From NCBI RefSeq assembly GCF_018977255.1, contig NW_024704742.1, positions 66,280,001 to 66,344,000 on the forward strand: a stretch of 64,000 nucleotides of DNA, written 5' to 3'. The notes under the pieces are model-generated. The model had not been told where the DNA came from. It did no database searches and saw nothing but the letters and a program-made list of their open reading frames with translations. Both the position numbers and the translations under genes were made by a program. The DNA comes from Callorhinchus milii. Lineage: Eukaryota. Shown here piece after piece: positions 2,389-39,940 of the stretch (position 1 is the stretch's first letter; every line of letters starts with the position of its first letter).

Positions 2389-2478
2389 GTATATGTCACC
2401 TGATTGACAATGCAATACACTCCATATGTTTCTGTTTACCTAGTAGTAAGTAAGAACCCGGTTGTTAGTCAATAGTCA

Positions 2479-2783: not shown

Positions 2784-3135
2784 AGGGGGATCGCTTTCCA
2801 GGGGTAATAATCCCTCCCCCCCAAAAAAATTGGTCCACGACTATTTGTGGGACACTGGTGTGAGCAATTGGCTGCTGCGTTTCACCCATAAATACACAGG
2901 TAACACACTTTACAATAAGTTTGTGAAGCACTTTGAGATGTGTCAACGACGTGATAAGGCGCTATATCAAATGCAAGGATTATTATTATCAGGATAGATA
3001 CAGAGCGGACGGAGGTCAGGCGTTTCCAGAAGCCATCAAAAATAAGGGTGGCTAAATTTTGTGTGAAAGGATGTATTTATAGCATGAAATAGTACACAAT
3101 CTTCTCTAACTGAGATACATTTGCCTCTGGAACAG

Positions 3136-3384
3136 GAACTGGAGGCTTGCATTGGCTGCATGCAAACCGCTGCTAACATCAAGCTGGTCAAAGTCTGCCA
3201 GGAGCCGAACGGAGGTGAATGCCAGCAGTGTTACTGCCGCCCCATGTGGTGCCTGACCTGCCTGGGAAAGTGGTTTGCCAGCCGCCAGGACCAGCAACAC
3301 CCAGAAACTTGGCTTTCAAATCGTGTGCCCTGTCCCACCTGCCGGTCCAAGTTCTGCATTCTAGATATTTGTATTGTGCGCTGA
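3136..3384 (+). CDS. TMEM129: TMEM129 last coding exon (C4C4 RING), stop TGA
   Basis: aacag|GAA acceptor. ELEACIGCMQ...CQQCYCRPMWCLTCLGKWFASRQD...RVPCPTCRSKFCILDICIVR* is the characteristic TMEM129 RING C-terminus. Confidence 0.97.
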   Translation, partial: ELEACIGCMQTAANIKLVKVCQEPNGGECQQCYCRPMWCLTCLGKWFASRQDQQHPETWLSNRVPCPTCRSKFCILDICIVR

Positions 3385-11457: not shown

Positions 11458-11545
11458 ATGGAGAGGAGGAGATGTGTCCGTCGTTTCCCAAGACTCGTTC
11501 TCGTCTTTCAGCTGATATTTCTTCTGACCCGATTACTTCACACTG
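11458..11545 (+). CDS. CD28H/TMIGD2-like IgV receptor, exon 1 (signal peptide)
   Basis: Strong Kozak context GCCAGCCATGG. MERRRCVRRFPRLVLVFQLIFLLTRLLHT has a basic n-region and a hydrophobic h-region. Phase-1 donor G|gtaag is in frame with the IgV exon. Confidence 0.8.
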
Positions 11546-12544
11546 GTAAGATACAAACTCTTCCAATAAGGGCTTTTTTTTAATATATAAAAAAAATTGA
11601 AAAATCTTGCTGACTCGCTGCACTTAATAATTTGATCGGTCAATCCACGACTACTTGTGGACACTGCTGGGTCCACAAATAGTCGTGTCTGCTGCATTTC
11701 ACCCACAAAATATACAGTCGATTCGCTTTACAGTATATTCTTTGAAGTGCTTTGAGAAATCTCGAAGATGTGATAAGGCACGATATCAAATGCAAGAATT
11801 ATTATTATTAATACTTTATATGTCCCTTTGTCTTTTCTTTGTTTGAAACCATTTCAAATAATAAGAGCTAAAATACTTAATATCATAATCCTTGTATATG
11901 ATGTAACATCTTTCTTGTCAAGAGAATGTCTGAAACTGCTTCACAGGATTTACTGTAAAACCCCCAATCTTCTGACCCAGAGGCAAGAATGCTATTAACT
12001 GCGCCTGGCTGACACAATATATATTTTGCCTCAATATTAAAATTACAAATGACATTTAAACAGGGAACAAAGTGATCATATTGACCCGAGAAGGACTGAA
12101 ACTACCTTCACAAATTATTTAGCATTAAGAATTTAGAATTAATTCACAGTTTTTTGGGGAGGATAAAGCAAAGGGCTTGCATAGTACTTTTAACATATTT
12201 AAATTCATTGTATGAATTTAGCATATTATGTGGGTTGAAGATAAATTAATCTCCAATGTTAACATTCATAGTTACAGTTCTGGTCATCGCGTCATAAGGG
12301 GGCTTGAGACAGTGCAGGGGAAAGTGATACAGATGATCTCCAGTGTTAGAGGAATGAGCTACGAGCAATGATCAGACAAGCTACGGTTCTTCAGTCTTGA
12401 GAGAAAGAATCTTATATAGTGGTGTATAAAGTTTTAAATGATTGAAAAAGTAAACCTAGAACAATACTTTGCGATGCAACAAAACAGGAGAAAAAGAGGG
12501 TGTAAGGCCTTTTGCATCTGAATTAACCTGTGATTTAATTTAAT

Positions 12545-13100
12545 TTCTCGGCTGGACTACTCTAACGCCCTCCTCGCCAGTCTGCCATCCACTACCATCC
12601 ATAAAATTCAAATAATTCAAAACTCTGCCACCTGCATTCTCAGCCGCACAAAACTCCACTCCCCGATCACCCCAGTCCTTGCCAGACTGCACTGGCTGCC
12701 TATTCCAGAGAGGATCAATTTCAAGATCCTCACCCTTGTATTCAAGTCCCTGCACTCCTCTGCACCCCCCTACCTCTCTGACCTCCTTTCTCCCCAAAAC
12801 AGAACCAGTTGCCTTCGTTCCTCCGGTTCTGGCCTCCTCCTCATCCCCCGAGTCCTCCGCTCCACCCTCGGTGGCCATGCCTTCAGTCACTATGCCCCAA
12901 GGCTCTGGAACTGCCTTCCTCACTCCCTTTATCTCGTTCTCTCCCTTCCCATTTTCAGGTCTCTGCTGAAGACCTTTCTTTTCGACTGCGACTTTGGTCA
13001 CTTTCCTCCCCCTCTCCCTGGCTCGGTCCCGGGATCCGTTACTGTAAAACACTCTGAGACGTGAAGGGCGCTATATAAATCCAAGTTGTTGTTGCTGTTG
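12545..13100 (+). mobile_element. L2-clade LINE 3' fragment
   Basis: SRLDYSNALL...LHWLPIPERINFK-like coding remnant. Ends in gtgaagggcgctatataaat and a (gtt)n tail. Confidence 0.85.
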
Positions 13101-13765
13101 ATCTCTTGTAAGTATGATAATAGTTTGGTACAGCGCCTTTCATGTCAGGAGGATATCTCAAAGTGTTTGACAGGATATATTGTAAGGAATATAGTGTAAA
13201 GATATACTATGTAGAGAACATATAAAGAGTATACAGTATATTATAACGTAATACCATAAAAAATGAAGAACAGTGGGAATTAAAATCACTGATGTATTCC
13301 ATTGTGATGGGCACCTCTATGTATTGAATCCTCCATTCTGTTTATTTTTTTCAGGAGCGGGTTGGGAATGATAGCTGAAAGTTTGGGATAAAGCTACATT
13401 CATAGCTCATGCCCCATTTGCTTCAGATAAAAACATAGAATGTTACTGCACAGAAGCAGGCCAAAAAACTTATTTTATCAAATGATTTCAGGAACACCTA
13501 ATCGCAGGATCACAAAATAAGTTTGGATGAAGGAGGCCCTTTGTCTGATCTGATCCTTTCAGAACACCGGCCCTTCCTTCCTCCCATCACAGCATCAAGC
13601 TGCTAGTGTCTTGGCTCAACTATCCTTCCTAGTAACCTCCTCCAATCGATTACTCTTTGGTTCCCCATCTTTGGTGGAGTCCTGCAACGTAGTGGTTAGT
13701 TAGTGCATTCACCTCTCAAGCATGAGGACCCGGGTTCATTTCCAGAGCGGGATGAAACCTTAGGC

Positions 13766-14112
13766 AATAATAATAATAATCCTTGCATTTGATATAGCAC
13801 CTTACCATGTCTTTGAGACGTCTCAAAGTGCTGTAAAGTGTATATTTTGTGTGCGAAATGCAGCAGACAATTGCGCACATCAGTGCCCCACAAACAGTCG
13901 TGGATTGAGTGACCAAATTATTATTTTTAAAACAATTTTTTGAATGGAAAACAATCCACCAATTGACCCACAACCTGCTTCCTACGTACTGCTGGGTGAA
14001 CAGAGGCGTGTGGAGTAAGAAAATTTGCCAAACGTTTCGCCTTGTCTGGGAATTGAACCCAGGTCCTCTCGTTTGCGAGGCAAGTGCTCTAACCACTGAG
14101 CTACAGGACTCC
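13766..14112 (-). mobile_element. tRNA-derived SINE (long type)
   Basis: Reverse complement of the same head and tail, with the internal segment present. Confidence 0.85.
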
Positions 14113-14526
14113 AAAAAGTACAGAAACCCTCTGCGTGCTTCAGGAAGCGACGCAGCCCGTTCATTTTTTATTCTCAGTTCAAACTTGCAACTTGTACATC
14201 AAAAATAAACAATAACAAACGCTCTTTATGCTGAGCAGATTCAGCCAAGCCTTGGGTGCTTATGTTGCTGTCACTCTGAACAAAAGCTCTGCATTGGGCC
14301 TTAGACCTGCAATACTCTCAACAGTATGAGAAAGTTAAAATGGTGCCTTCAGTCTCCTTTCTGTTAAAAATTACTGGTATCTCCATTAGAAATTCCAAAC
14401 ATCTTTTTTCTCCTTTTTAAATAAAAGCTTCCAGAACTCTGACTCTGAAGGAACACTATTTTTGTTTATTTTTTTGTTTTTGATTTTTGACAAATCTTTC
14501 CTTCAATCCATATTCAATCCAGGATT

Positions 14527-14853
14527 GTGGAGTCCTGTAGCTCAGTGGTTAGAGCACTCGCTTTGCAAGCGAGAGACCTGAGTTCAATTCCAGGCAGCGC
14601 GAAACCTTGGGCAAGTTTCCTTACTCCACATAGAGCCTAATAATAATCTCTCCAAAAACCAAAACAATAATAAATTGGTCATTTTCAATCTACGACTGTT
14701 TGTGGGACATTGCTGTGCGCAATTGGCTGCCGCGTTCGCCCACAAATATACAGTCAATTCACTTTACAGTGTGTTCTGTGAAGCGCTTTGGGACGTCCTC
14801 CCGACGTGAAAAACGCTATATCAAATGTAAGGATTATTATTATTATTATTATT
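14527..14853 (+). mobile_element. tRNA-derived SINE, young subfamily
   Basis: Near-identical to the copies at 40873, 53431 and 60997. Confidence 0.9.
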
Positions 14854-14884
14854 CATGCTCTTTTGCTCTCTTTCTCGCTTTGCA

Positions 14885-15143
14885 CTATTTCCTTGTTTTC
14901 TCTGTCTCGGCACAAAGTTTCTCAAAAGGCTTCTACCATCTCTGGGTCCATCTGATCATCTGACAGGACCAGATGTGCGACTCCGTCATCATCTGAGTAA
15001 CGTTGGAGAACCTCCTCCCTGTCAATCATCTCCTGGTACTTTTCTAGGTAATCTGGGTCTGCTGGTGTGAGGGCAATTCCCCCTGCTGAGTAAAATACTG
15101 GCTCATTCATGTAACAGTTAGAATCGTTTTAAGGCATGTTTCC
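14885..15143 (-). pseudogene. PAIP1: Processed pseudogene fragment of PAIP1 or a PAIP1-like gene (C-terminus)
   Basis: Minus strand reads P*NDSNCYMNEPVFYSAGGIALTPADPDYLEKYQEMIDREE...DDQMDPEMVEAF/EKLCAETEKTRK*. Human PAIP1 as recalled reads PENDPNYFMNEPTFYTSDGVPFTAADPDYQEKYQELLERE...DDEMDPEIEEAYEKFCLESERKRKQ. No introns, in-frame TAA at 15129-15131, +1 frameshift near 14924-14927. Confidence 0.85.
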
Positions 15144-15739
15144 TTAATACCCACCCTTCTATTTACGTAGTAGAAAGTAGGAACCCGGGTGTCAGTCTAT
15201 TGACAGATCACTTTCCGGGGGTAATAATCCCTTCAAAAATAAATAAATAATTGAATCACTCAATCCACGACTGTGCACAATTGGCTGCCGTGTCTCGCCC
15301 ACAAAATACAGTTAATCCACTTGACAATATATTCTATGAAGCGCTTTGAGACATCTCAAACATGTAATGAAGCACTGGATCAAATGCAAGGGTTATTATT
15401 ATTATTTTAAGATCTTCCTCTTCACATGTGCCTTCAGTCATCTTCCCACCCACCCACCTTGGTGCAAACCCTACACTGTCCAGCGCCTTAGGACGTCCTT
15501 CCAACTTGAAATGCACTATATAAATGTAATTTTGTTGTTGTTGTACAGTCTGTGTATATGACAGTATTGTTCTGGGTTACATTTTCCAATCCAATTTTAT
15601 AATGCGCAAATGTCACGATATACCTGGAGAGGCAGGTTTATTTAATCATCAAGATTATTTTATTTCGGCAAATCTGCTAAATCAAGTAACTAAAATATTG
15701 AGTATCATGTGGAGAAAAAAACTCCAGCATAGAGTCCTC

Positions 15740-15820
15740 GTGGAGTCCTGTAGCTTAGCGGTTAGAGCGCTTGCCTCGCAAGCAAGAGGACCTGAGTTTG
15801 ATTCCTGGGCAGAGCGAAAC

Positions 15821-15856
<36 letters not shown>

Positions 15857-16323
15857 CCTTGCATTTGGTGTAGGGCTTTTCACATCTTCTAGATATCGCA
15901 AAGCCCTTCACAGAATATGCTGTAAAGCAAATTGACCGTATATTTGTGGGCAAACGCGGCAGCCAATCGGACACAGTAGTGTCCCACAAACAGTCATGGA
16001 TTGAAAATGACCAATTTATTATTGTTTTTTGTTGGACAAGTTTCCTTACTCCATACCACTCTGTTTACCTAGCAGTAAGTAGGAACCCGGTTGTTAGACG
16101 ATTGTCGGATCGTTTTTTCAGGGGTAATAATCCCTTCAAAAAATAATAATAATAATTTGTTCGTTCAATCCACGACTGTTTTTGGGACACTGCTGTGTCC
16201 AATTGGCTGCTGCATTTCGCCCAAAAATATACACTTTACAGTATATTCTGTGAAATACTTTGAGACGTCTCGAAGATGTGATGAGGCCCTATGTCAAATG
16301 CAAGGATTATTCTTACTATTATT
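15740..16323. mobile_element. SINE (+) interrupted by an inverted, 5'-truncated SINE (15824-16030)
   Basis: The head stops at gcgaaacgtt and resumes at ggacaagtttccttactcc. The insert starts with an (aat)n tail. Confidence 0.8.
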
Positions 16324-17433
16324 ATCCACCTTCTGCTCCCTGTGAGGCCACTGAAATCATTCTGAGATATTTTGTTAGTCAAACTCTGCAGATACTTCAC
16401 ATAATATATACTGATCTATTACAGGTTACAAAGCCACTTGCAACCTTACCCAAATGTGGTTGAAACAACATGTTAGGAGGTTCAGTGTATTTTCTGTCTC
16501 AGTGGGTAACAGCTATATCTCTGAAACAGACAGTTGCGGCTTCAGCCTCCACACTAAATTTTAATCTCATATGCTTGAGCATGACACTGAGGGAGCACTG
16601 CATTGTTGGACGTGGCTCCTTCATCTAAGACGTTAAACCATGATTTCCTGTGCTGGTGGCTACTAAAGATCAAACAGCGCTATGTATTTCAGCCTCACTC
16701 ATTCAGTAATACCCTCGCCTCGATTCAGAAGGTTGTGGGTTAAATTTTGACCTCAGGATTTTGATCTGTGCTGACCCACCATTGCAGTGCTGGGAAGCCA
16801 TCCTTCAGATGAGACACTCCTTGAGGACTCCTTGAGGAGCAAGGCTGTGTAGGGCTTTGAAAGCTCCTCCCTATATTTGTGATCTGCTAACTTCATACTG
16901 CTCCCTCCGCTCCACCATCAGCACTCGGGCCTTCAGCCTTTCTGCTCCCACTTTTAGAACTCCATCACACAGTCCCTTTGCCTCCCTCTCTCCCTTGCCT
17001 TCTTCAAGGCCCATTCTAAACTCTCCTCTTTGATCGAGCCTTCAGCCACCCTCCTACCACTACCCACCCTGCCCTCCACCCCTCCTGATATCAACCCCGA
17101 GCTGGAGTCCAAATCCTTGACTGTCCAGCTCCTTGGGATGTCATCCTAAAGTGAAAGGCGCTGTACAAATGTTGTTGTAATCTTTCTCTGCTTTTCCTCC
17201 AAAGACCTTAATAGTCTAGTTTGTCAACTATGTGTAATGTCATCGCCCTCTCCCTTCACCCTTGCTCAGTGTCCAACCCCGCCATTGTGAAATGCTCCAG
17301 AACACTATCCTACATGAAGGGCATTATACAAATTCAAGTTGTTGTTGTGCTTTTCTGTCTTAAACGCTTCAAATGATTCTTCTACTTTTAGTAGTCCTGG
17401 GTGTCTGTTGATATCATGTTTTTTTTGTAACAG

Positions 17434-17766
17434 AGACGCACGAAGAGTTAAAAATAACCCAACACCCTGTGACAGTAAATGTGTCTGTGGGCGACTCTGC
17501 CACAATGACCTGCTCATGGACTGGCATGCAGATTGACCATGTTAGAGTTACCTGGAAAAAGGACGGCGAGCTGATTATTACAAAGACAAACAAAGATAGT
17601 CCCATTTCACATTCCAGAATGAACTGGGATATGCACAACTCCTCCTTCAATCTTATTATCAATAATGCTGATCTGAATGACTCTGGATGGTATTGTTGCA
17701 TTGTGGATGTGGAAATACCAATACACCATCAAGCTAAAGGAGATGGAACATTCCTACTAGTTTCTG
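17434..17766 (+). CDS. CD28H/TMIGD2-like receptor, exon 2 (VJ-type IgV domain)
   Basis: taacag| acceptor and G|gtaag donor, phase 1-1. Reads ETHEELKITQHPVTVNVSVGDSATMTCSW...VRVTWKKDG...DLNDSGWYCCIVDVEIPIHHQAKGDGTFLLVS. Has the B-strand Cys, C-strand Trp, DSGxYxC and GxGT; RVxWxKDG and VEIP recall TMIGD2. Confidence 0.92.
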
Positions 17767-18342
17767 GTAAGGACCTTCTTTGTATACCTTTAAATAAAGA
17801 GTGTTCAGTATTACGTGTGACTAATTCCAGTGTGTATCTCTATAAGAAAATAAAAAGAAGAATCCTTGCATTTGAGGATGTCAGGAGGACATAATAATAA
17901 TAATCTTTGCATTTGATATGGCACATTATCACGTCGTTGGAACGTCTCAAAGCGCTTCATGGAATATATTGTAAAGTGGATTGACTGTATTTTGTGAGCG
18001 AAACGTCTGAAAATGGCTCATTTGATTCATTGTGAAGTGTAGGTTATTGGGAGTTCAAGCCCCACATTAGGACTCAATCTCACGGTCTAGGCTGATACTC
18101 CATCGCAGCACGAGGGGTGGGGAAGTACTGCATTGGCTGATGTACTGCCCATAGTGCTATACCAAGGTCCTATCTGCCTTTTTTCAAATAGACGTTAGAG
18201 ATTCCGTGGCACTATTCATAATATGGTAATAATCCTTGCATTTGATATAGCACCTTCAGAGAGTGGGGCTGAAAACTACTGACTGATGGTGGGAAGGAGG
18301 CAAGCAGGGAGGATGTAGGGTGAAGCATGAGCATACACAAAT

Positions 18343-18685
18343 AACAACAACAACAACAAGATTCCATTTATAGAGTGCCTTTCACGTCGGGAGGACGTCC
18401 CAAGGCGCTGTATAGTTGGGTCAGGACCCGAGCATTGGGGGGAAATGGTCAGGGTGAGGGGAGGGAAGGGAGGGAGCGAGGAGGGGGTAGAGAGTCGAGA
18501 GGGGAGCTGAAGGCACGGTCAAAGAGAAAGGTCTTGAGACCGGCCTTGAAGGACGAAAGGGAGGAAGCGGCGAAGGCACTGGGAGATAGAGTTCCAGAGC
18601 CTCGGGGCTGAGAGGCTGAAGGCCTGGCCACCGATGGTCGGGGGTTGAGGCGGGGGATGTGGAGCAGACCGGAGCCAGAGGAACA
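18343..18685 (-). mobile_element. L2-clade LINE 3' fragment (a closely similar 3' end lies at 21511-21695)
   Basis: (aac)n tail and L2 3' UTR, near-identical to the 21511 copy. Confidence 0.8.
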
Positions 18686-19141
18686 ACACCTTCATGGAGG
18701 ATAATGCCTTGGATCGCTTTAATGTTATTGATTGGTCATAAGCAGGTCAGGATCGGATATTGAGCAAGGGAAGGCGCAGGTGAGTATAGGTGCAATTGAA
18801 GAGGGCTTTAAGGCGAGCCTTGAAGAGAGATAAAAAGGGGAGGAAATTCCAGCGTTAGGGGGGTATAACGGAAAACTAGGTCACTGATAGTGGTGCGCGG
18901 AGAGAGGGAAGAACATGCAGCAAGCTTAAAAGGTCGTTAAAGATTAGGTCGAGGATCTTGAAGTTAAATCTCTGGGAGGATAAAGCAAAAGGGGATTTTG
19001 GAAAGAGGGTGAGAAAGTCTTTGTAGCCGTAGTGGAGCAAGTGGATGTGCCAGCCAGAGATGCATAGTGAGACAGGCTGAGGGGACAGCTCAATCTCCAG
19101 ATGGCCTACTTATGACGAATCAGTAACATAGACAATTGTTT

Positions 19142-19400
19142 TTGGTCAGCTGGGTGCCTGACACATGCAGAATCCATCACCATGTTTAAGAGTATTCATA
19201 TCTAGCTTTTCATGCATCCCACCTCCACGTGGTAATCCCAGAAATATATTGTTGGAATGGAATGCGCACACTCCCCAGAGGGACGCATCCTGTTTACCTA
19301 ATTCTGGAAAGTATTAGGCGCAGAATGGTAAGAACCAAGGTTTGGGTACCCCAGAGTGGGTGTTGGGGTAACTGCTGGAGTCTAACCAGCTAAAACCACA
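19142..19400 (+). repeat. Unclassified ~300-bp interspersed repeat (other copies at ~815-970, 1215-1295 and 10725-10965 on +; ~1450-1630, 42580-42805 and 59320-59655 on -)
   Basis: Shared blocks catcaccatgcttaagag, catgcatcccac, ggagggacacatcc, acctaattc..gaaagtattagg and gagccaaggcttgggg.ccccagag. Confidence 0.75.
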
Positions 19401-19613
19401 TAGCTGGCCATTGATATTGCTATCTGGCATAGACAACCACAGCTCAGTTTCCACTTTACCATTTGCTTGTGCACTCTGTCTGACTTGTGGAGTTTTTAAT
19501 TGATGTACCATACCTAACTCGTGATTACATTTTCCATCTAATGTCATTTTTTAGCTTGCAAACAACAATAAAAGTTGGTATATGATGTTGCTTACATGTT
19601 TCTTCATTTGCAG

Positions 19614-19643
19614 GTATATTTGGAAATAAAAGTATGATGAAAG
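19614..19643 (+). CDS. Ig receptor exon 3 (10-aa stalk GIFGNKSMMK)
   Basis: tttcttcatttgcag| acceptor and AAG|gtatag donor. 30 nt, phase 1-1, contains an NKS sequon. It can be skipped without a frameshift, so it is less certain. Confidence 0.55.
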
Positions 19644-19914
19644 GTATAGTTACAATTAGTTAGTAAGCTTGTTCTGAGAATCTGTGTGTTTGGTAAAGTA
19701 ATACCACATGCCTGCATAGACCGTATGAGCAGGGGCTGTGAACTGGAACAGATGATGAACAAAATTTTCCACAGGAAACCTTTGATTCAGGTCACTAAAA
19801 TGCTGCTCTGATGTGCACTATGAGCAGAAGCCACCTTCTCATGACAATCTGAAGGCTCGAGAACTTCAACAGATGAGCAGTGCATTTTAGAGTTCATTCT
19901 TTGACTGGCTCATC

Positions 19915-20265
19915 GTAATCCTTGAATTTGATATAGCTCCCTATCATGTCGTTGAGACGTATCAAAGCGCTTCATAGAATATCCTGTAAAGTGAATTGAC
20001 TATATTTTGTGGGCAAAACACGGTGGCCAATTGCGCACAGCAGTGTCCCACAAACAGTCGAGAATTTAGTGATCTAATTATTATATTTTAGAGGATTATT
20101 ACCCCCAGAAAGAGATCTGCCAATCAACTAACAACCGGGTTCCTACTTACAGCTAGGTAAACAAATGTGTGGAGTAAGGAAACTTGCCCAATATTTCGCC
20201 CTGCCGGGAATCGAACCCAGGTCTCTCGCTTGCGAGGCGACTGTTTTAACCAATACACTGCAGGA
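19915..20265 (-). mobile_element. tRNA-derived SINE (long type)
   Basis: Full head-to-tail match on the minus strand. Confidence 0.8.
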
Positions 20266-20976
20266 CACTTTAATTTTTTGTAAACAAATATATTTATTGA
20301 TATGTAAAAAACATATTTCCACTTTAAGAATAACTCCATCCATATCAGAAAAAAGAAATTTTGCAAATACTCTTGTTACCAACCGCAACGGCCAACCATC
20401 CCCGTCCTCTTATTTCCCAAGCAAATGAATACATTTAACAAGATACGCACACTCATAACAAAAAAAGAGGAACTGCAACTTTAATTAGCAATGTGCTGTA
20501 GTTAAAGGGGAAGTGCATGTCTCATAATTACCACCGAATCCTAAAATGTATCAAGGGAGGTAGCTGCACTTTTACTGGTTGGTGAAGTCGAGGGGGCTGG
20601 GGGAGGAAAGACCACACTCACCCTAGAATTACTTCCTACAGAGATGTGTGTGTGTGTGGGGGGGGGGGGGGGGTGAGGGAGGGCGGGGGGGGTGGGGGCG
20701 GTGGTGTCAGTGGAGACAGATTCTATCAGCAAATTCAAGAGGGAATTGGATATTTGGGGAAGAAATTGATTGAGGGTACGATAGATAAAGTATTGCAGGA
20801 TTATTAATTTGTGTCACTTTGCGACCATCCAGATGTACTGCATTGGCCTTTATCGGGTCTGTATATTCCTATGTTCCTATGGTAAAATACTATTAATGTT
20901 CCCGGCAATGTTGGAATAGTGACTCTGGCAGCGAGGTTAGCCTGCCGAGCATTTGTTATAGCCCCTGAAGTAACTA

Positions 20977-21154
20977 CAGTCGAACCTCAATATAACAAAC
21001 CTTTTGCTTGTAACAAACCCCCAGTTTTAATAATCCCAATGTCAAGACCCGATATTTGCACCTCTTTGATAGCGAAATCCTGCTACAGTGAACCCCTTCA
21101 TATAACATCTTTTCTGATGGTCTCTAGTGGATTTGTTATAGTGAGGTTCAATTG
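20977..21154. mobile_element. Tc1/pogo(Tigger)-like MITE
   Basis: TA|CAGTCGAACCTCAATATAACAAA ... TTTGTTATAGTGAGGTTCAATTG|TA terminal inverted repeats with TA target duplication. Confidence 0.8.
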
Positions 21155-22628
21155 TATATTGTTGAAAAAATATTGCAATGTTGCTGTAAAACGGATCCTG
21201 TGACTGCAAATCACCTCAAAACATTTTGCAAAGGTGGAATGGGAGCCTGAGCTAGGAGGGAGATTGATAATAATAAAATAATAAACCTTGCATTTTGATA
21301 TAGCACGTTTCACGTCAGGGGGACGTCTTAAGACGTTTCACAGAATTTACTGGAAAGTGTAATTGTATTGTATAGGTGTACCCAACAGCTGATTTGCTCA
21401 CATCAATGTCCCACCAGCATGCATGAAATGAATGACCAATATTATTTAAGATTGTTAGCCAGGACACCAAGAGTAATTCCCTTTGCTTTTCGAGCAATGC
21501 CATGCAACAGGACAACAACAACAACAAGATTTAATTTATAGAGCGCCTTTCACGTCGAGAGGACGTCCCAAGGCACTGGACAGTTGGGTCAGGACCCGAG
21601 CAGGGGGCAAATGGTCAGGGTGAGGGGAGGGAAGGGAGGGAGCGAGGAGGGGTTAGAGAGTCGAGAGGGGAGCTGAAGGCACGGTTGAAGAGAAGAGGAC
21701 CTTCGTTTAACGTCTCATCCAAAATATTAGGGGGAGGTGGCCATAGGCACAGTTGAAGACAAGTCCTTAAACAGGTTTTGAAAGCAGAGAAGGCGGGCAC
21801 GAAGAGGGTGGGTGAAAGTGACTGAAAGCTCACCTGCCGATGGTAGTACAAAGCAAACTGAGGGTTACGAAGCAGGCCAGAGTTAGACCCCATGGAGTGG
21901 CTAGGGGAGTAGTGTCACAGCAGATTGAGGAAGATTGGTGTAAGGCAGTGGAGGCATATGAAGGTGAGTTCAGGGATATTAAAGTGGTATTTACAGTACA
22001 GATCCATTAAAGCAGAGGAAGACTTATAAGTTAGTAACATATAAACAGTGACGACAGAAGCTTTTTACTATGGGTGTGCGGGAGTGAGAATATCAAGTGA
22101 CCCCCTTCTCCCCCAATGAAATATACAAAGAATCGGTGTAATCGTTTGTTTAATGGCCAAACTGAAATATAGACAATTTGGAAATGGGAAGGAGGGCATA
22201 AACATACTCCTCCACCCAACGTTTTTATTGGTGAGGGCACTAGACTCTCTGCCCCCAGTTCTACCTCCACTGCATATAAATACTTCCCAAAAGAGCTCAC
22301 TTGTGCTAGTTACAAACCAAGTTTAGTTCTGTATTAACTTTAGTTCTGGGCTTTTTTTTTAATTTGAAAATTTCTGTGGGTTTCTGGAATGAACTCTCTG
22401 TGGTCACAGAAGCCAAAGGGTGAGCGAGAAGTGACTTCCTCTGACGTAGTCTGGTGTTGAGCATTAGCTAAATTGGTGCATACCTTATTCACCATTAAAA
22501 ACAAATTAACTGGTCCAAGTCAGCTTGAGACATTATGGCCCATTGAGGCTCATTGACTGTATATGTTGTGGGCGAATCTTAATGGAAAATAAAATAATTT
22601 CAACAACTTTTCTTTTCACTGAATACAG

Positions 22629-22748
22629 ATATCCACCCCGAGTCAAAGATTATTATCTGGTTGCTGGCAGCCCTCTGTCCAATAATGCTGGTCATCATCA
22701 TATCTTTATGCTACTGCTTCAGGCAAGAGCAAAAGCGACAACAGAATG
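22629..22748 (+). CDS. Ig receptor exon 4 (transmembrane)
   Basis: tacag| acceptor and G|gtgagt donor, phase 1-1. DIHPESKIIIWLLAALCPIMLVIIISLCYCFRQEQKRQQN is a hydrophobic helix followed by a basic stop-transfer segment. Confidence 0.85.
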
Positions 22749-24133
22749 GTGAGTCTCTTGATGCTGCTGGGCAGATCTTTGTATTACATTCCTTCAAACA
22801 TTCAGCTGTACATGTCCATTACCCCGACCTTGCCAGGCTCCACTAGCGCCCAGTACCCTGGGGTTCAACTTTAAGATCCTCGTACTGTTTCAGCCTGGAT
22901 CAGTTGGTACCATTCTTGCTTCTGAGTCAGAAGGTTGTGGGTTCAAGCCGCATGTTGGGAATTGGAGCTCATATAGACCAGGCTGGCACTCAAAAACATT
23001 TCTGGGGAAGCGTTGCATTGTCTGAGGTACCATCCTTTGGATGAGATCTGGGACGCTACCCCACATGAAGGGGGCTACATAAATGTAAGTTGTTATTGTT
23101 CAGATGTTAAACCGAGATCCTGTCTGCCTGTCCAGGTGGACATTAAACAATCCCATGATACTATTTGAAAATAGAAAGGAATTTCTCACAGTGACCTAGC
23201 TAAAAATCCCTCAAACAAAATTGATTATTTACTTCCTGGCAGTTTGTGGGGCATTGCCACATGCACAATTAGCTGCCATGTTTTTCCCACAAAATAAAAA
23301 CACACAGTCACCTCAATTTACAATATATCCTGTGAAGGGCTTTGAGACGTCCTCCTGATATGAAAAGTGCTAACCCAAATGTAAGGATTATTATTATGAT
23401 TGTTATTATCATTGTTCAAATCCCTTCATTATCTCTCTCCTCAATCTCCTCCAGTCTCCCACCTGTTCCCTCTACTCTTTTAACTCTGGTCTTCAGCTCA
23501 TCCCTTACTCTCTCTGACCAACCATATGTGGCCAAGCCTTCAGTCACTATGCCCCACATGCCCTCCTGAACACTCTCCGCAAATCCCTTTAGCTTGCTCC
23601 TTTTCTTCTAAACCCTCAAATTTCTTTGAATGTGAATTAAGTCAACACTTTTAAAACCCTCCTCCTGTCCTCCCTGCTCAGTGATCTCCATCATCCTCAT
23701 TTTGAGAAGCTCATCTTCCACAAAAGCCTGTATATAAACAACTACAATAACAAATTCCAATTGTATAGCACCTTTCACATTGAGAGGAGGTCCCATGGTG
23801 CTGGATACTCAAGGATTTGCACCTGAGCTGGGGTTGGGATCAGGAGGGGTGGAGGGCAGGGTGGGTAGAAGGGTGACTGAAGGCATGGACAAAGAGGAGG
23901 GTCTTGAGATGGGCCTTGAAACGGGCAAGGGAGGGGGAGAGGTGAAGGGACTGTGGGATGGAGTTCTAAAGGGTGTGGATGGAAAGGCTGAAGGTCTGAC
24001 CACCGATGGTGAGACGGGGGACATAGCCTGCTAAGTAGAGGGAGTGGAGTGGTCGATATAAGTTCAAATTGTTATTTTTGGAGAAAATGTAATCATACTT
24101 CATCAAGCAAGTTTTTGTTATGATTTCTTTTAG

Positions 24134-24158
24134 GATTGGCACCAAACTTAAGAAGAAG
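24134..24158 (+). CDS. Ig receptor exon 5 (cytoplasmic, GLAPNLRR)
   Basis: tttcttttag| acceptor and AAG|gtaatt donor. 25 nt, phase 1-2, supplying the phase change the next exon needs. Confidence 0.6.
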
Positions 24159-25097
24159 GTAATTATAAATGGACAGTGAAATGAATTGCTTTCCAATACG
24201 CCAAAGCAGCAGAACAAGAAGGAACAGGTCTGGGGTTTGCAAAGGAAAATTTCAGGACAAAAACTAGAAAGTATTTCTTTACCCAGATGGTAATTGACGA
24301 CTGGGACAGGTTGCTAGGAAAAGTGGTCGAGGCCAGAACATAAAACAGCTTGATGCTTTAATGGGAAGATGGCAGGGTCTGTGTTCTGAATGGATGGCTG
24401 AGGCTTCTTCATCCAAAACCTCTTCTTTGATAGCAGATAGTATAGATGGATTTAAGAGGACACTAGACATACACATGGGGAAGAAGAGAATCAAAGAGGG
24501 TAAAGAGAAGGTGAAGACTCAGGGAGTATAAACAGCTTCATGAATGGCGCAGTTAATAATATAATATTAATAATAATCCTTGCATTTGATATAGCTCCTT
24601 ATCACATCTTTGAGACGTGTCAAAGCGCTTCACAGAATATACTGTAAAGTGAATTGACTGTGGTTGGGCCGAATGGCAAGTTTCTGTGCTGTACAATTTA
24701 TGCAAATCTGTGTCATCTTGTAAATTTTTCTTAGGGTAACTTCAGCACTTTACAGAGGGAAGATCAAAAAAAAAGGGAGGAAGATCAAAAAAAAAGGGAG
24801 GTCCATCTGAGAACAGAGAGAAGAGGTGAACTACATCAAAGCAGTTTGGGATTAACTGGGTCAATACTCATGACAGGCAGTTTGGGGGCAGCTTGTTCAA
24901 ACAAGGTTAATGGCAATAATATCCCGTGAGATCCTCAGTAGGTTTATCCAGCACGTTTTTCAGTAAGTTTATCCACTGCTGAAACCTTTGAGAATGGAGT
25001 GAAGATGAGGAGGAGTTGTTGGGAGGGTCTGCCTGCACATCTGAAAAATTATGATTTTTTTTTAAAAAGGAAGAACAACTTTTTTTTGTATCTTTAG

Positions 25098-25156
25098 ATT
25101 GCATTCAAATGCTGCGGAACTCGCTGCATCACATGGGAAACTGCCACAAACAAAAG
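25098..25156 (+). CDS. Ig receptor exon 6 (cytoplasmic, RLHSNAAELAASHGKLPQTK)
   Basis: tatctttag| acceptor and AAG|gtaaaa donor. Phase 2-1, open. Confidence 0.62.
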
Positions 25157-26167
25157 GTAAAAGAGACATTTCTAATGGAAATGTTATACCAAGAAAGGTA
25201 AGTATGGTTAGATAGAAATTTACAGGAGTGGAATACAGACATTTATTTTAGGACTTTCACTAGGCGGGTGGAGGGAGGGGTAAACAGGAGCTTTTTCAGC
25301 CTCTGATAGGACTTTAGTGATGGGATTGAGAAAATAAACCTAGAACAATGTTTTCAGATATGACAAGGCAAAGGGACCAAAATACACAGACTGTGAAGAA
25401 TAGTCATTAGGGCAGACACCAGGAAGTATTTGTTTGCATAGCGGGTAGTTAACAGTTAATGAGTTACCAGGAAGGGTGGTTGTGCCCATGCCACTGGCCT
25501 CCATCTGGGGATACTGCACACTAGCACATAAAAGCACCAAATATAATTCTATGATTCTAGGTGGTGTCAGGTTTCTGTACATGTCAATGAAGTGACTGCC
25601 AGAAACTATTTCCACCTGCTGGCAGGAAGACTCTCCAGTTCATTTCTGTCAACACCAACCTGATCCTAACTCAAAATAAGAATGACAAAAGTTAATAGAA
25701 AGTGCAGGAGAATTTTAAAAAAAATTAGGGGGCTTTGATAGGCATGCACACTTTCAGGAAATTGAATATACCCATTAACATCCACTAGAACTGACAGACA
25801 GTACCTCGGTTTAACATCTCATCTGAAGGACAGCACCCCCAACAATACAGTGTTCCACCAGCACTGTATTGGGATGTCAGCCTAGGCTATGTGAGTTCAA
25901 AGCCCCGAAGTGGGGCTTGAACCCGCAGCCTTCTGCCTCATCGGTCAGAGTGCCATCAATTGAGCCAGGCTGACACCTGAATAATATCAGGATGATAATA
26001 AGTCACGTTTATCAATGTTGAATTGATCTTTACAATTGCAATGAGTTACAGCGGGTATTGAGTTACAGCAGGTATAAAGCTCTGTGGATAAATTTGCGAT
26101 ATGTTACAGATTTCAGTGCCTATTGAGTGGTTACTAATATTAAGTTCATTTCATATTTTTTGAACAG

Positions 26168-26231
26168 CCAATTCTACATTTGAACCCAAGTCTGTAATAA
26201 TTGATACTGTTCAATGCAACAATAGGAAAAG
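26168..26231 (+). CDS. Ig receptor exon 7 (cytoplasmic, ANSTFEPKSVIIDTVQCNNRK)
   Basis: ttttttgaacag| acceptor and AG|gtaaga donor. Phase 1-2, open. Confidence 0.68.
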
Positions 26232-27354
26232 GTAAGAAATTCATAAGAAAATAAGAATTGTTAGGCAAAAGAAGACCAAAGTCCATCCAGTTCGCCTTTC
26301 ACCATCCTGGCAGTCGCATGACATGTTGTGCCCCAAACTAGATATAGAAATTCCCTGCTGTGTATTGAAGAAAAAGTTCCAGCACCACATAAGTGGAGCT
26401 CTATAGGGTCACAAAAGAAAAAAATAATGCTTGCCAAATGCTTGATTGCCTACAAAATACACAGTAACTACAATTTATCGTAAATTCTGTGAACCCCTTT
26501 GAGACATCCTCCTGATATGAAATACGCAATATCACATGCAAGATTATTACTTTCAAACGGCCATAGCGCCCCGAGTCATTTACTCCCAGCAGACTGGATC
26601 ATTAAGGCCTTCAATCTGCTTAGTACCTCTCACCAGTTCTTCCAACTTCATATAGATGGGTCTTTCTGCTATGGCCTGCCTGTTCAGAAACTATCCCTCT
26701 ATATTGTTCTCTCTGGATCCAAAGGACACACAAGGGGACACCCACAGGGACTGAGCAAATCCATCTCTATCCAGTTTACATCCTTTGACTCTGATTTCAC
26801 AAGATCACAATATTGATCTGGACAAAGAAGGCCCTTTGGGCCATTTGATCTCATCCTCCTAGATACTTAAAGCACTCGCCTGGCAAGCGAGAGACCTGGG
26901 TTCAATTCCCCCGGCAGGGCGAAAACTTGGGCAAGTTTCCTTACTCCACATGTGTGAAATTGGGCTCAAGTGTTTGTCAGAAACCACACCAAGGATATTG
27001 TTAAAACATTTTATTAGCAATTATAAAACCACATAAGCATCACATTACACCCAGCGCATAATCATTACTCGTCGCACTTAAATGACTACTAAAGCACTAT
27101 CCTAACAAGATAGTTAATTCTAAAATTCTATTGATATAAAAAAATTAAGTGATATATGAAATGTGGCTAAATCATCACTAACTGTTTTGTATGTATGTTG
27201 GTTGCGTGTTTTAGTAAGTAGGAAAGATACTACCAAGCAGGCAGGAAGTCGTGATGAAGTTCTAAGGCTGGCACATAAGTTAAACACTGTCTCTGGTGTG
27301 CTGCTGGCTGCAAATGTCTCTGGCTTGCTTCCAGCTGCAAATGTCTCTTGGTGG

Positions 27355-28115
27355 TCCAGGTCTCCCTCCCACCTCTCCGCTTTCCCTCACCCCTACACCA
27401 CCCATCCCCTATGCTCGGGCCCCGACACCTGACTGTTCAGTGCTTTGGACCATCTTCCCGACGTGAAAGGCGCTCTATAAATGTAATTTTGTTGTTGTTG
27501 TTGTCCACTCTGGCGAGAGCTGGACTTGTCCTCTTTCCCTCAAAGACGCTCTTCTTGCCCAACTCCACTGGCTTCCCATCACACAGAGGATACAATTCGA
27601 GATCCTGGTCCTCATATTCAAAACCCTCCACGGTCTTGCTCCCCCTACCTCTCCGATCTCCTAACCCCCTACCACCCTGTTTGCTCCCTCCACTCAGCGG
27701 GTTCCAGCCTGCTTCATGTCCCCCGCCTTGCTCGTCCCACTATCGGCGTGCGGGCCTTCCGCCACTCTGCGCCCACCCTCTGGAACTCCATCCCACAGTC
27801 CCTCCATCTCGCCCCCCCCTCGCCACCTTCAAGACCCACTTCAAGACCCTCCTCTTCGACTGTGCTTTCGAACTCCCTGCTTCCCCCCCTTCGCTGCACC
27901 CTCTCCCACCCAAACCCTCAGCTTGAGTCCGTAACTCTGTCTGTCCAGCACCTTGGGACGTCCTCCCGACATGAAAGGGGCTATACAAATGCGACATTGC
28001 TGTGCACAATTGGCTGCCACATTTCAACCACAAAATATATAGTCAATTCACTTTACAGTATATTCTGTGACGACGTGAAAAGTGCTATATCAAATGCAAG
28101 GATTATTATTATTAT
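27355..28115 (+). mobile_element. Tandem L2 3' fragments plus a SINE tail
   Basis: Two L2 3' ends and an LHWLPITQRIQF remnant, followed by a SINE tail ending (att)n. Confidence 0.75.
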
Positions 28116-28253
28116 TAATATCCAACATATCGTCTTCTCTTTTAATATCATTTAAACTAACGCAAACATAGCAATTCACGGCCTCAGTAACAATTGGCAA
28201 AAGCTTGATTAATTCTGTGCTTTGAACCTGTGCTGTTAAAATGTCTGTTGCAG

Positions 28254-28318
28254 CTCTCAATTTTATGTAAACAGCAAAGAACTAAGCCAGGCCTGTGGGC
28301 AAATTGAGGACAAAACAG
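28254..28318 (+). CDS. Ig receptor exon 8 (cytoplasmic, SSQFYVNSKELSQACGQIEDKT)
   Basis: ctgttgcag| acceptor and CAG|gtaaga donor. Phase 2-1, contains YVN. Confidence 0.72.
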
Positions 28319-30626
28319 GTAAGAGCAAGCTATACCGTCTAACAAACTGTAAACACTGCCTTCTAGTTAATTGAATTGAATATATTGCTTATGAGATACA
28401 CGTAGTTGTTACAACTTTGTCTCTTGGGGATGGATTGAGACCGGCTTCACCTTAATTTAACTTGTCTAATAGTGCTTATAATTATCTCCCTATTGACATA
28501 TGGCTCCTCAGCCACATCACAAAGGCTGGGTTGCAATTCCACAGGAACTGGTTGCAACTCAGATACCCTCCCCAAGTAGCTATGTGACTAGCTGATAGTG
28601 GCTATCAGAGATGGCGTCACATCAAGACTGACATTGCCTCATCCAGGTCTCACACACTCAAACCACCAGCAGAGGGGGCTAAAGAGGGGCTCGGAGCAGG
28701 AAACCTGGCTGTTTTTCCCCTCTCCAGCTCCAGGAAGGATGGGGCCATTTAGCTTTCCTCAGAAGCCCAGATGAGACCACCAGCAAATTCACGATTTGAA
28801 CCAGGGAGCTCCAGGTCCACAATCTGCAGTCCTACCCACCTCTTGAATATTACATTATTTTGTTCTTCATTTACCCCCAAAATCATTGCAAATAACGTAT
28901 CCCTAGTGGGATGAAAAATCTTTCATTCCTTTTCTCTGGGTGGCAACTATTTAAGGACATTTTGTTAATAATAAAAAATAAAGATATTAATCCTTAATTT
29001 TGGTACAGTACCTTACACGTCAGAGGATGGCTGACAGCAATTTAGAATATATACTTAAAGTGGAGTACCTGTGTATTTTCTGGGTGAAATGGGCAGCCAA
29101 TTTGTTTGCATAGCAATGTCCCACAAACAGCCATGGAGTGAGTGACCGATTTTATTTGGGGGTTTGTTGGCCAGGACACTGGGAGAAACCATCTTCTCAT
29201 TTCAAGTAGTGCCATGGGATTTTTAAAGTCCACCTGAACAGGCAGATGGGACCTCGGTTTAACAACACAACAACAAGGTTACATTTGTATAGCGCCTTTT
29301 ACATCGGGAGGACGTCCCAAGGCGCTGGACAGTGTACAGCATTTCAGACCCGAGCTGGGGTCAGGGGGGGAGAAGGGAAGGGAAGAGAGGTGACTGATGG
29401 CATGGTCGAAGAGGAGGGTTTTGAGACGGGACTTGAAGGAGGCTAAGATTTCATCCTAAGGGCAGTGCTTCCAAAAGTACAGCGCACTCCTAGCACCATA
29501 TTGCAGTGCCAGCATCCACTATTTGAGTTCCAAGTGTCGACGTGGTAGTGGAACCCACAACCTTCTGTTAACTGTTTAAATTGTAATGTTTAGTAAATTT
29601 CCGCTCTTCACAGTGAGGGAATCTCCATCAGCTTTTAATATCAGCAACAAACACCCCCAAGTCCAGTTAAAGCTGCATACAAAGTAATACTAGGTCTTGG
29701 AACAACACCCCCTGCCGCACCAATGTGACACTTCAGGCCATATGATAATACTGTCACACATCATGATTATTATTGCTACGATTGTTATTACTATCTTCAA
29801 AGTTAGTAACTGTTCTTCAAAAGTTAATGGCTGTTCTTCAATGTTTGTGAATGTTCTTCATTGTTTAATAACCTCCAACTCAGGTACAAACCCTTGATTG
29901 TCCAGTGCCTTGGGATGTCCTTCTGCCATGAAAAACGCGATACAAATGTAATTTGTTGTTGTCTGTGACTATTTTTCAAATTTTGGCTCTTGAAAGTTAG
30001 TAACTATTCGTGAATGTTAGAGACTATACTTCAAAGTTCAGGTTCAGAGGACCTGTGTTGAGATTTTTAGCGTTTCACTGGTTGTGACACCTGCCCATCA
30101 AGCCAGCAGCAACAACAACTTGCATTTATATAACGCCCTCCACGCAGAGAGGCATCTCGGAGCACTTAACAGTGGTGGAGTCTGACACCAAGCTGGGTGG
30201 AAGGGGGAGGTGACTGTAAAAGGAAGGTATGCAAGCATGCCTGAAATGGGGGGAAGAAGGGAGCAAGGCGGAGGGATTGAGGGAGAGAGTTCCAAAGTTT
30301 ACAGTTAATGAAATTCATTTGTAACAATACAGTTTGGTCCTCGATAAACAGTGTTGAGCATGGAATCAAAAAAAGGGAAGCGATAAGTTTTAAAGTTAGA
30401 AAATAAAGTTTAGGTAACAAAAGTAAGTGAAACGTAAATGCGGTGAAATATGAAATAGCTTTATTATTGTAATATTAATGGGCTTTTCATCATCACTTTC
30501 GGGGGTAATAATCCCCTAAAAAACAAGAAATTTGATCACTCAATCCACGACTGTTTATGGGAACAAAAACAGAGAGAGCTGGGAAAACTCAGCAGGTCAG
30601 GCAGCATCAATGGAGAAAGGAAAGTG

Positions 30627-30663
30627 AGTCAACATTTCGGGTCCACGACCCTTCATCAGAACT
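30627..30663 (-). ncRNA. Minimal type I hammerhead ribozyme motif in a Penelope-type repeat (30562-30663)
   Basis: Minus strand AGUU-CUGAUGA-A-GGGUC-GUG-GACCC-GAAA-UGUU-GACU has both core boxes, a perfect 5-bp stem II and a 4-bp stem I. Stem III is minimal. Activity is unproven. Confidence 0.6.
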
Positions 30664-30961
30664 ATTTATTCTGCTGTTTATACTGCTGTGCACAATTGGC
30701 TGCTACCTTTCACCCACAAAATATAGAGTCAATTCACTTTACAGTATATCCTGTGAAACGCTTTGAGACGTTTCAACGACATAAGGTGTAATATCAAATG
30801 CAAGGATTAATATTATTATCATCACTTTCCATGGGATAAATGCTTACAGATCAATTTGCTCAGAGATAGAAATCTGAAAATTCTTATGGCCTTGAGACTA
30901 ATGCCAGAAAATCTAAGATCGTGCAGAATTTTCCAAATGTTTCTTACCTTTTATTTTCCAG

Positions 30962-31056
30962 ATCATGTCTACAGAAACACGGCAGACATAGAATGGGAGA
31001 AACGGCAGTCGTCAGCAAACAGGACAAAAGACGGGGACGTATATCAGAATACGTAA
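30962..31056 (+). CDS. Ig receptor exon 9 (terminal, DHVYRNTADIEWEKRQSSANRTKDGDVYQNT*)
   Basis: Strong polypyrimidine acceptor ttattttccag|. Phase-1 start, YRN and YQN motifs, stop TAA. The nine-exon model totals 879 nt = 292 aa plus stop. Confidence 0.72.
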
Positions 31057-35350: not shown

Positions 35351-35381
<31 letters not shown>

Positions 35382-38805: not shown

Positions 38806-39805
38806 GTATTTACTTATGTGCCTGTTGCTCCAGTGTTGTGATTGTTAGTCCTAAAATAGCACTCTGTTAGACAGAGTAATCTTAAATCATTGTAAGGCAT
38901 TGAGTGGAGACCGTTTAATGGGCTGTAGGTTGCTTGTTGCCAGACCAACGTCATGATAGTATTTAAAACAATGTTTTTTGGCTCTTGGGGTATGTTTTGC
39001 CTACAAAATATACAGTCAATTCACTTTACAGTATATTCTGTGAAGTGCTTTAAGATCTCTTGAAGACGTGATAAGACACTATATCAAATGTAAGGATTAT
39101 TATTATTGCATGTCTGTCCCATTTTTCTCCCTAGAAATGCAAAGAGCCCTGTGACTTACCCCTAACATAAAAGAACCAGTTGTGGAAAGACTCTTGTACT
39201 AGTTTAAACAGGGTGGCTGTGCAGCCTTTGCAGTGATAGGATCCTAGAGAATGAGTTCCTGGATATAAATGCTTCATTAGGGATGATTTTTTCTTTGTCT
39301 AAAACAGAACTCTTTAAGAATCTGCTCTGTTAGATGGGTTTTTAGTTGCCCTCCACTTCTCCAAGTAGAATAAATAAAGCTGCTGCAAATTCAAGCAGTG
39401 CAATGAGATGGTATTGTGGAATACAACAACCACAAGATTACATTTGTATAGCGCCTTTCACAACGGGAGGATGTCCCAAGGGGCTGAATAGGCCCGTTGA
39501 GCCTGTTCTAATACTTGTCTCCATCTCTTAATACTCTTCTTTCCCATGCTCTGGGGCAGTGTTTTCATATCTTATGTGAAAACATATTTTCTAGTTTAAC
39601 TCTAACTCAATTTTATTTCAATTATACCCCAGTGAAGTGGCGTTTCGAATAGCTTTTATTGGTAACTGTAGTGAGAGCATATTGCGTAATTAATAAACAA
39701 ACTGGTTATTCCTTTTGGAGTTTTTTCCTATTTCCCAAATCCCAGCCAATTACAAGAGTTTGGGGAGCAGTAACTACTGAATGTGTAATAATTGACTTCT
39801 TTCAG

Positions 39806-39940
39806 TTCCAGTTGCTCCAGGGAATCATTGGTATCTTCAGAACTTGAAACTGATGAAGTAGTGCTAATGAGAAGACAGAAGCAGATCAACTATGGGAAGA
39901 ATACAATTGCATATGATCGATTCACACGAGAAGTTCCAAA
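39806..39940 (+). CDS. SLBP: SLBP exon 5 (RNA-binding domain, first half)
   Basis: [31 protein letters not shown], with canonical splice sites. Confidence 0.97.

Follow-up and report, generated by a model that had tools for sequence, protein, structure and literature searches.

In the present study, a gene on the + strand of a 64,000-nucleotide (nt) stretch of the elephant shark genome (Callorhinchus milii, contig NW_024704742.1, positions 66,280,001 to 66,344,000; hereafter the window) was found to be a real, intact gene of eight exons between positions 11458 and 31056 of the window, encoding a type I membrane protein of 282 amino acids (aa). Sequence comparison identifies this gene, very probably, as CD28HL2, a paralogue of the immune receptor CD28H (TMIGD2), and its presence here contradicts the report that chimaeras have lost cd28hl2. 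The gene is no new kind of receptor, the family and the locus having been published in 2024; the new aspect is its presence in a chimaera genome where it was reported missing. An original prediction, made from the window sequence alone, had placed a CD28H-like immune receptor gene between TMEM129 and SLBP and had presented it as novel. The location is confirmed by Pfam matches on both sides; the novelty fails, because a CD28H-like gene at the slbp/tacc3/tmem129 locus had already been named CD28HL2 (PMC11599192). The best explanation overall, and one that we hold with considerable confidence, is that the interval carries the holocephalan orthologue of CD28HL2.

First, the gene carries the features by which CD28HL2 has been described. 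Quiniou et al. (2024, Front Immunol 15:1501934, PMC11599192) named four new CD28H paralogues, among which CD28HL2 is the paralogue in the slbp/tacc3/tmem129 synteny block, to which S6 of that paper adds FAM53a and ccdc142. It is characterised by an architecture of immunoglobulin variable (IgV) domain, transmembrane segment and intracellular part, by YxNx near the C-terminus, by the lack of a well-conserved Y motif just after the transmembrane segment, and by the loop motif Y-x-C-[E/K/Q/N]-xxx-E-I-P-[P/A/L/V]-[P/F/L]. In the literature searched, the name CD28HL2 occurred only in this paper, and no paper combining CD28H with Callorhinchus was found. The window gene encodes a single extracellular V domain, a transmembrane segment and a cytoplasmic tail, consistent with the published architecture; TMEM129 lies upstream, SLBP downstream and CCDC142 farther downstream, consistent with the published synteny; and the core Y-x-C...E-I-P of the third complementarity-determining region (CDR3) motif is present as YCCIVDVEIP. 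The YxNx tyrosines are found in YVNS, YRNT and a C-terminal YQNT. These are the only three tyrosines of the tail, all of the YxN type; the part of the tail encoded by exons 3-6 contains no tyrosine, and neither YxS, YxxM, nor the immunoreceptor tyrosine-based inhibitory or switch motifs (ITIM, ITSM) occur in the tail. The assignment to CD28HL2 rests on synteny, the collinear tail, these motifs and the full-length tree, and not on the V domain alone.

Second, the gene model is complete from start to stop. Exon 1 (11458..11545, 88 nt, ending in phase 1) contains the ATG at 11458, the signal peptide and a GTAAG donor; its leader was matched weakly by shark and ray leaders in tblastn, and the 5' untranslated region (UTR) extends to 11353 or beyond in a contig of the public sequencing run X1. 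Exon 2 (17434..17766, 333 nt, phase 1-1) encodes the entire V-set Ig domain, with E=2.4e-12 against Pfam V-set and E=1.7e-22 against great white shark CD28HL2 (tblastn), and its FG loop, YCCIVDVEIPIHHQAKGDG, is followed by a J-like G strand. Translation of this exon bears out what the original prediction had read in it, namely RVTWKKDG, VDVEIP and a J-like GDGT, with no MYPPPY. Exon 3 (22629..22748, 120 nt, phase 1-1) encodes a very short, cysteine-free stalk, the transmembrane helix IIIWLLAALCPIMLVIIISLCYCF, a hydrophobic segment of 24 residues as read from the translation, and a basic stop-transfer stretch; it matched P0060 (Scyliorhinus, E=1.3e-7) and P0016 (great white shark, E=3.9e-6) in tblastn and is collinear with the orthologues. 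Exon 4 (24134..24158, 25 nt, phase 1 to 2, with a ttttag acceptor and an AAG|gtaatt donor) encodes LAPNLRR, which pairs in the alignment with NISNLRR and IISNLRR of the catshark and Heptranchias proteins. Exon 5 (25098..25156, 59 nt, phase 2 to 1) encodes RLHSNAAEL..., and exon 6 (26168..26231, 64 nt, phase 1 to 2, strong sites with an AAG|gtaaga donor) encodes NSTFEPKSVI.... Exon 7 (28254..28318, 65 nt, phase 2 to 1, ACAG|gtaaga donor) carries YVNS, aligned as the counterpart of the CD28HL2 YINS and matched by P0060 and P0065 in tblastn. Exon 8 (30962..31056), the last coding exon, carries YRNT, the C-terminal ...VYQNT, which aligns with the shark C-terminus ...IYQNT, and the stop TAA at 31054-31056; the 3' UTR extends to 31302 or beyond.

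All eight exons are on the + strand with GT-AG borders, compatible phases and an open frame throughout, so that the canonical splice sites and consistent phases of the original prediction hold for every supported exon, as do its start, its stop and the layout of its product, which has an N-terminal signal peptide and a single germline V-J-type Ig domain, then a short stalk, one transmembrane helix and a tail that is now about 110 aa long. Only three of the exons appear among the open reading frames (ORFs), as had been stated; at a 60-aa threshold these ORFs are 160, 82 and 81 aa long. The predicted nine exons and 292 aa were not borne out. When the intervals between the IgV and transmembrane exons, between the transmembrane exon and exon 4, and between exon 7 and the last exon were scanned, no in-frame exon of 27-33 nt with a good acceptor tract and donor was found. 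The shark orthologues have no additional residues between the IgV domain and the transmembrane segment or before the last exon, and the end-to-end alignment with them leaves no room for 10 more residues. A candidate ninth exon at 21934-21963 has the strongest donor but a poor acceptor tract, and the orthologues have no residues matching it. Exons 5 and 7 both match the shark exon 'RLYINSAEL...' and both run from phase 2 to 1; they are paralogous copies, from an ancient duplication of the 'YINS' exon within the gene that is shared with the catshark and Heptranchias, the upstream copy (exon 5) having His for Tyr in all three genes.

Third, the model is consistent with the orthologues and, in part, with transcript-like sequence. 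The product is collinear from end to end with Scyliorhinus isoform X1 (P0161, 106/277 identical) and with the Heptranchias protein (P0162, 122 of 274 aligned positions identical), and its identity to the elasmobranch orthologues ranges from 34 to 45%. Gaps in the orthologues fall between the exon boundaries of the model, with exons 4 and 5 missing in Cetorhinus and Narcine and exons 5 and 6 in Hemiscyllium and Stegostoma. Exons 3-7 are proposed on the strength of this exon-by-exon collinearity with the shark proteins. None of the public runs with this sequence is recorded as RNA; X1 and X2, both from one study, were flagged as possible RNA by the tool, X3-X6 are DNA-type runs, and X8-X12 held almost none of the sampled words. 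The share of the sampled words of 17300-17900 that was present was 0.54 in X1 and 0.52 in X2, the exon being 55% of that stretch, and 0.78-0.95 in X3-X6. Contigs of X1 and X2 map to 11353-11544, 17433-17765, 17439-17765, 30960-31173 (X1) and 31103-31302 (X2), and the first three of these carry 21, 30 and 40 extra letters, respectively, that do not match the adjacent intron. A contig of the DNA-type run X3 spans 17113-17916 uninterrupted, through both borders of exon 2. At the borders of exons 1, 2 and 8, where contigs of X1 and X2 end, the pattern is that of spliced RNA, given that the DNA run continues across the borders of exon 2. No exon-exon joint was seen in the depth and joint tables of the runs, which are swamped by high-copy intron repeats. 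These repeats lie at 13.3-16.7 kb, 18.0-18.7 kb, 24.0-24.7 kb and 28.0-28.7 kb, reach, in summed contig depth, about 16,000 to 230,000 for the pair of RNA-like runs and about 85,000 to 650,000 for the DNA-type run, and gave thousands of false joints.

Fourth, the closest relatives of the protein are shark proteins of the CD28HL2 type. The IgV exon, compared with 1.84 billion representatives, gave 607 matches at E<=0.001 in the whole library; the best single-domain match over the full length was P0016, with 50% identity. P0016 is the great white shark protein XP_041039503, which bears the NCBI name 'cytotoxic T-lymphocyte protein 4-like' and is aligned as CD28HL2 in PMC11599192. In a word-based search for homologues of the IgV exon, limited to proteins of 194-2000 aa, not one of 59 candidates reached E<=0.001. 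Uncharacterised proteins of Cetorhinus, Scyliorhinus, Heptranchias, Hemiscyllium and Stegostoma came from a profile search, which also gave a second group, from sharks and a sawfish. In a full-length tree of 23 rows and 276 columns, built without bony-fish CD28HL2 and without full-length CD28H, the window protein and seven elasmobranch CD28HL2-type proteins formed a clade at 97/99; of these seven, XP_041039503 belongs to the set of PMC11599192. Within the clade the window protein is sister to Narcine plus six sharks (branch 97/96), a placement that matches the species-tree position of a holocephalan. Phylogeny gave this clade at full length; with the IgV domain alone it did not settle the matter. 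Several of the shark CD28HL2-type proteins are annotated 'uncharacterized protein', namely P0060/P0161, P0159, P0162 and P0164 (Scyliorhinus, Cetorhinus, Heptranchias and Stegostoma), and are missing from the list in S4, which names the great white and epaulette sharks only (PMC11599192). Two shark CD28HL2 accessions in S4 look swapped or mistyped, as far as the columns of the PDF are not misread: XP_041039503 stands beside 'Epaulette shark' though it is a Carcharodon protein, and XP_060678526 is given both for great white CD28HL2 and for epaulette CD28HL1 (PMC11599192).

The same assembly contains IgV exons of the CD28HL1 and CD28H types, which bears directly on two rival identities. The exact published elephant-shark CD28HL1 loop motif is found in tandem IgV exons at 26.73 and 26.74 Mb of contig C1, the contig that carries the window, and the exact published elephant-shark CD28H loop motif, YVCEVFIEIPSLHRDSGNG, in an IgV exon at 2.71 Mb of contig C21. 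With the window gene, at C1:66.28 Mb, the elephant-shark genome has a third E-I-P gene, distinct from these. The original prediction had left a choice between a CD28H-like paralogue at a locus absent from mammals and a transposed CD28H; the first part stood and the second did not, in view of the separate CD28H-motif exon on C21. That CD28H (TMIGD2) itself was relocated in this lineage, the window gene being its true orthologue at a new locus, is very improbable and already largely refuted. The E-I-P loop core and the YxN tail tyrosines are common to the window gene and CD28H (S4, PMC11599192), and an approximately unbiased (AU) test on the IgV domain leaves the grouping of the window gene with the CD28H-type IgV of its own genome unrejected (p=0.26); against it stand the CD28H loop motif on another contig of the same genome, the fsd1/stap2 synteny published for CD28H (PMC11599192) as opposed to TMEM129/SLBP here, and a tail that follows the shark CD28HL2 proteins exon by exon. 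Even less credible is the proposal that the window gene is of the CD28HL1 type or arose from CD28HL1, on the same chromosome, by a recent duplication confined to this lineage. CD28HL1-type IgV exons do lie on the same contig, about 40 Mb away, and are 38-39% identical to the window IgV. However, the grouping of the window gene with chondrichthyan CD28HL1 was rejected by the AU test (p=0.0085), the tail lacks the CD28HL1 motif SSRGSxQW...YESF, which was present in 7/7 elasmobranch CD28HL1-type proteins (YQSF in one) and appears with YESI in the Callorhinchus protein, and the man2b, kiaa0232 and tbc1d14 genes of the CD28HL1 synteny (PMC11599192) do not flank the window gene.

Several further relatives were observed. 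The tandem CD28HL1-type IgV exons (C1:26728865-26729182 and 26742412-26742729) are 13.5 kb apart; one is identical to P0048 across the IgV domain, and the other differs slightly, including VELP for VEIP. An IgV exon at C5:68158691-68158987 with the loop YRCELAIALPPPTNTNMGTG looks CD28/CTLA-4- or CD28X-like. Proteins P0004, P0008, P0035 and others, which we take to be from teleosts, contain two to four tandem E-I-P V domains, with a CD28HL1-type SSRGSSQW...YESF tail in P0004 and P0035; these may be genuine receptors with tandem domains, or gene models that have been fused. P0063, P0132 and P0138 combine an E-I-P-P-P V domain with a C1-set-like domain ahead of the transmembrane segment and tail, a V-C1 architecture outside the CD28 family as given in PMC11599192.

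A number of observations weigh against the CD28HL2 assignment or the model behind it. Three degenerate positions of the CDR3 motif differ, with Ile for [E/K/Q/N] and I-H for [P/A/L/V]-[P/F/L], and the tyrosine of the shark 'YENS' exon is lost in its counterpart by alignment, exon 6, which has FEPK. The published survey covered a chromosome-level elephant-shark assembly (S1) and reported no cd28hl2 (PMC11599192). The IgV-only tree (115 columns, own-genome paralogues included) leaves the position of the window gene open, with the AU result for CD28H given above, and the group of window gene plus CD28HL1 in the AU test was named after the tree had been seen. Transcript-type contigs fall on exons 1, 2 and 8 and none on exons 3-7, and the RNA nature of X1 and X2 is a guess by the tool. 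Since the IgV-only tree does not separate the candidates, the support for the clade comes from the transmembrane and tail columns, the synteny and the motifs. The deviating loop positions are treated as divergence, and not as exclusion from CD28HL2, because the CD28HL2 members of the paper themselves deviate from the published consensus (S4, PMC11599192).

In another reading, this orthologue of CD28HL2 is in decay or has taken on a different role, being transcribed but no longer acting as a classical signalling co-receptor, for example as a decoy or a weakly expressed relic, which could explain why it was neither annotated nor found. The long terminal branch of the window protein (0.65), the loss of P-x-P after E-I-P together with the loss of the YENS tyrosine, and the low depth of the RNA-like contigs (3-6) would fit such decay, as would the lack of a protein for this gene in the collection, given the word-based search of 194-2000 aa and a best single-domain match of 50%. 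On the other hand, none of the eight exons has lost its open frame or its canonical splice sites, the Ig hallmarks are kept, including the invariant columns C26, W40, D82, Y86, C88, I94, P95, G102 and G104 (alignment A2), three YxN tyrosines are kept, and the structural model is confident. We therefore regard decay as unlikely and retain the reading of the window gene as an intact CD28HL2.

The second signal in lymphocyte activation is set by the CD28 family, the early history of which is under revision. The retention of CD28HL2 in Holocephali, and apparently also in a ray, removes two proposed losses and adds the gene to those present in the chondrichthyan ancestor. In PMC11599192, cd28hl2 is reported absent from chimaeras and from rays, and an early diversification followed by lineage-specific loss is argued for the CD28 family. 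A missing gene model is most likely behind the reported absence from chimaeras. As for rays, the electric-ray protein P0065 (Narcine bancroftii XP_069779858), with the motifs YENT/YKNI, groups with shark CD28HL2 (97/96), and the contig that bears it equals in length the one with Narcine TMEM129, which suggests that rays also keep the gene. Herein, we propose as likely that CD28HL2 was not lost in chimaeras, where an intact, transcribed copy persists at the ancestral TMEM129-SLBP locus, and that, with the electric-ray protein in the clade, the gene is ancestral to all three chondrichthyan lineages, the chimaera and ray 'losses' being annotation gaps. With its remodelled loop (EIPIH) and the lost YENS tyrosine, the ligand or the signalling may have shifted relative to sharks. 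The present study also provides a usable exon model for a gene without a close match in the protein collection searched, and this opens work on expression and ligands in the elephant shark, a standard model species.

The flanking genes were mapped from two exons each, all on the strand of the gene, in the block order TMEM129 - gene - SLBP - ... - CCDC142. The last two coding exons of TMEM129 lie at 2173..3381 (ORFs 2173-2400 and 3088-3381, +) and match Pfam Tmpp129 with E=2.3e-16 and 8e-44 (profile positions 202-264 and 264-349 of 349). In coding residues these exons match the Callorhinchus milii TM129 protein without a difference, compared with at most 92% in sharks; the matches were 83/84 and 56/64, with the mismatches at or beyond the coding ends, where the ORFs run into the intron. 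The exons of the SLBP RNA-binding domain lie at 39792..40676 (39792-39941 and 40404-40676, +) and match Pfam SLBP_RNA_bind with E=6.8e-10 and 1.6e-14 (profile positions 1-31 and 27-70 of 70). CCDC142-family exons lie at 61627..62465 (+; Pfam CCDC142, E=1.3e-5 and E=8.3e-8). Within the window neither TACC3 nor FAM53A was seen; beyond it no search for them was made. An open frame of 586 aa at 56616-58373 (+) has no Pfam match; it precedes the CCDC142-family exons by 3 kb and may represent a large exon at the 5' end of the same gene. GC-rich islands were observed at 34000-38000 (GC 0.50-0.52), which fits the 5' end of SLBP, and at 46000-50000 (GC 0.45-0.50), with a GC of about 0.40 elsewhere.

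In an AlphaFold2 (AF2) model the V domain adopts the canonical V fold, with a confidence score (pLDDT) of 92.1. In Foldseek against pdb, T-cell receptor (TCR) V-alpha domains came on top, mouse CTLA-4 at rank 16 (TM-score 0.81/0.82) and PD-1 at ranks 28, 40 and 43; a second fold search, VIA-align, likewise gave TCR V-alpha (Z 16-17). Such matches to a predicted model indicate the generic V fold and not a function. TMIGD2 was not among the 50 fold-search matches shown, from which no conclusion is drawn. Sequence searches of PDB ranked ROBO, antibody light chains and pIgR first for the IgV exon and returned, for the family profile (alignment A1), mostly antibody chains as well as titin, CEA, pIgR/secretory component and Dpr-interacting protein; these searches do not separate the members of the CD28 family, and nothing is concluded from TMIGD2, CD28 and NKp30 not being among the 60 matches shown.

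By analogy with CD28, CTLA-4 and CD28H, the FG ('CDR3') loop with its E-I-P core would form the binding face for a B7-family ligand on another cell. Phosphorylated YVNS, YRNT and YQNT might then recruit the SH2 domains of adaptors of the GRB2/GADS type, and this recruitment would lead to a positive, co-stimulatory signal in lymphocytes. In CD28H, YxNx has been read as a GRB2/GADS-type motif favouring positive co-stimulation (PMC11599192). This co-stimulatory mechanism, drawn from the YxN motifs of the tail, is put forward tentatively, as a possibility somewhat short of even.

Compared with known systems, the window gene is closest to CD28HL2. The two have in common a single IgV domain, a transmembrane segment and a tail, the Y-x-C...E-I-P loop, C-terminal YxNx motifs, including YVNS for YINS, the position between tmem129 and slbp with ccdc142 nearby, and, in the full-length tree, a clade with the shark proteins. 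In the G strand, the G-x-G has an acidic residue as in shark CD28HL2, with GDG in the window protein and GEG in sharks, whereas CD28H and CD28HL1 mostly have GNG. The window protein differs from CD28HL2 in the loop EIPIH without P-x-P, in the Ile after Y-x-C and in FEPK for the shark YENS, and its gene stands in a holocephalan genome, where the absence of the gene is reported in PMC11599192. CD28H/TMIGD2, the receptor of B7H7/HHLA2, resembles the window gene in the E-I-P motif (human YVCWAAVEIPELEEAEGNI, S4, PMC11599192), the one V domain and the YxN tyrosines, and differs in its fsd1/stap2 locus (human 19p13, PMC11599192) and in the layout of the exons and motifs of the tail; it is likely to be the model for how the window receptor works. 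CD28HL1 resembles the window gene in the E-I-P loop and the single V domain and lies on the same chromosome-scale contig, but has GNG, the tail SSRGSxQW...YESF and the man2b/kiaa0232/tbc1d14 block. CD28/CTLA-4 also have a V-J-type single Ig domain, and mouse CTLA-4 is the best structural match outside the TCR; unlike these receptors, the window gene has the loop VEIPIH in place of MYPPPY, lacks YxxM and a stalk cysteine for a disulphide-linked dimer, and falls outside the CD28/CTLA4/ICOS cluster.

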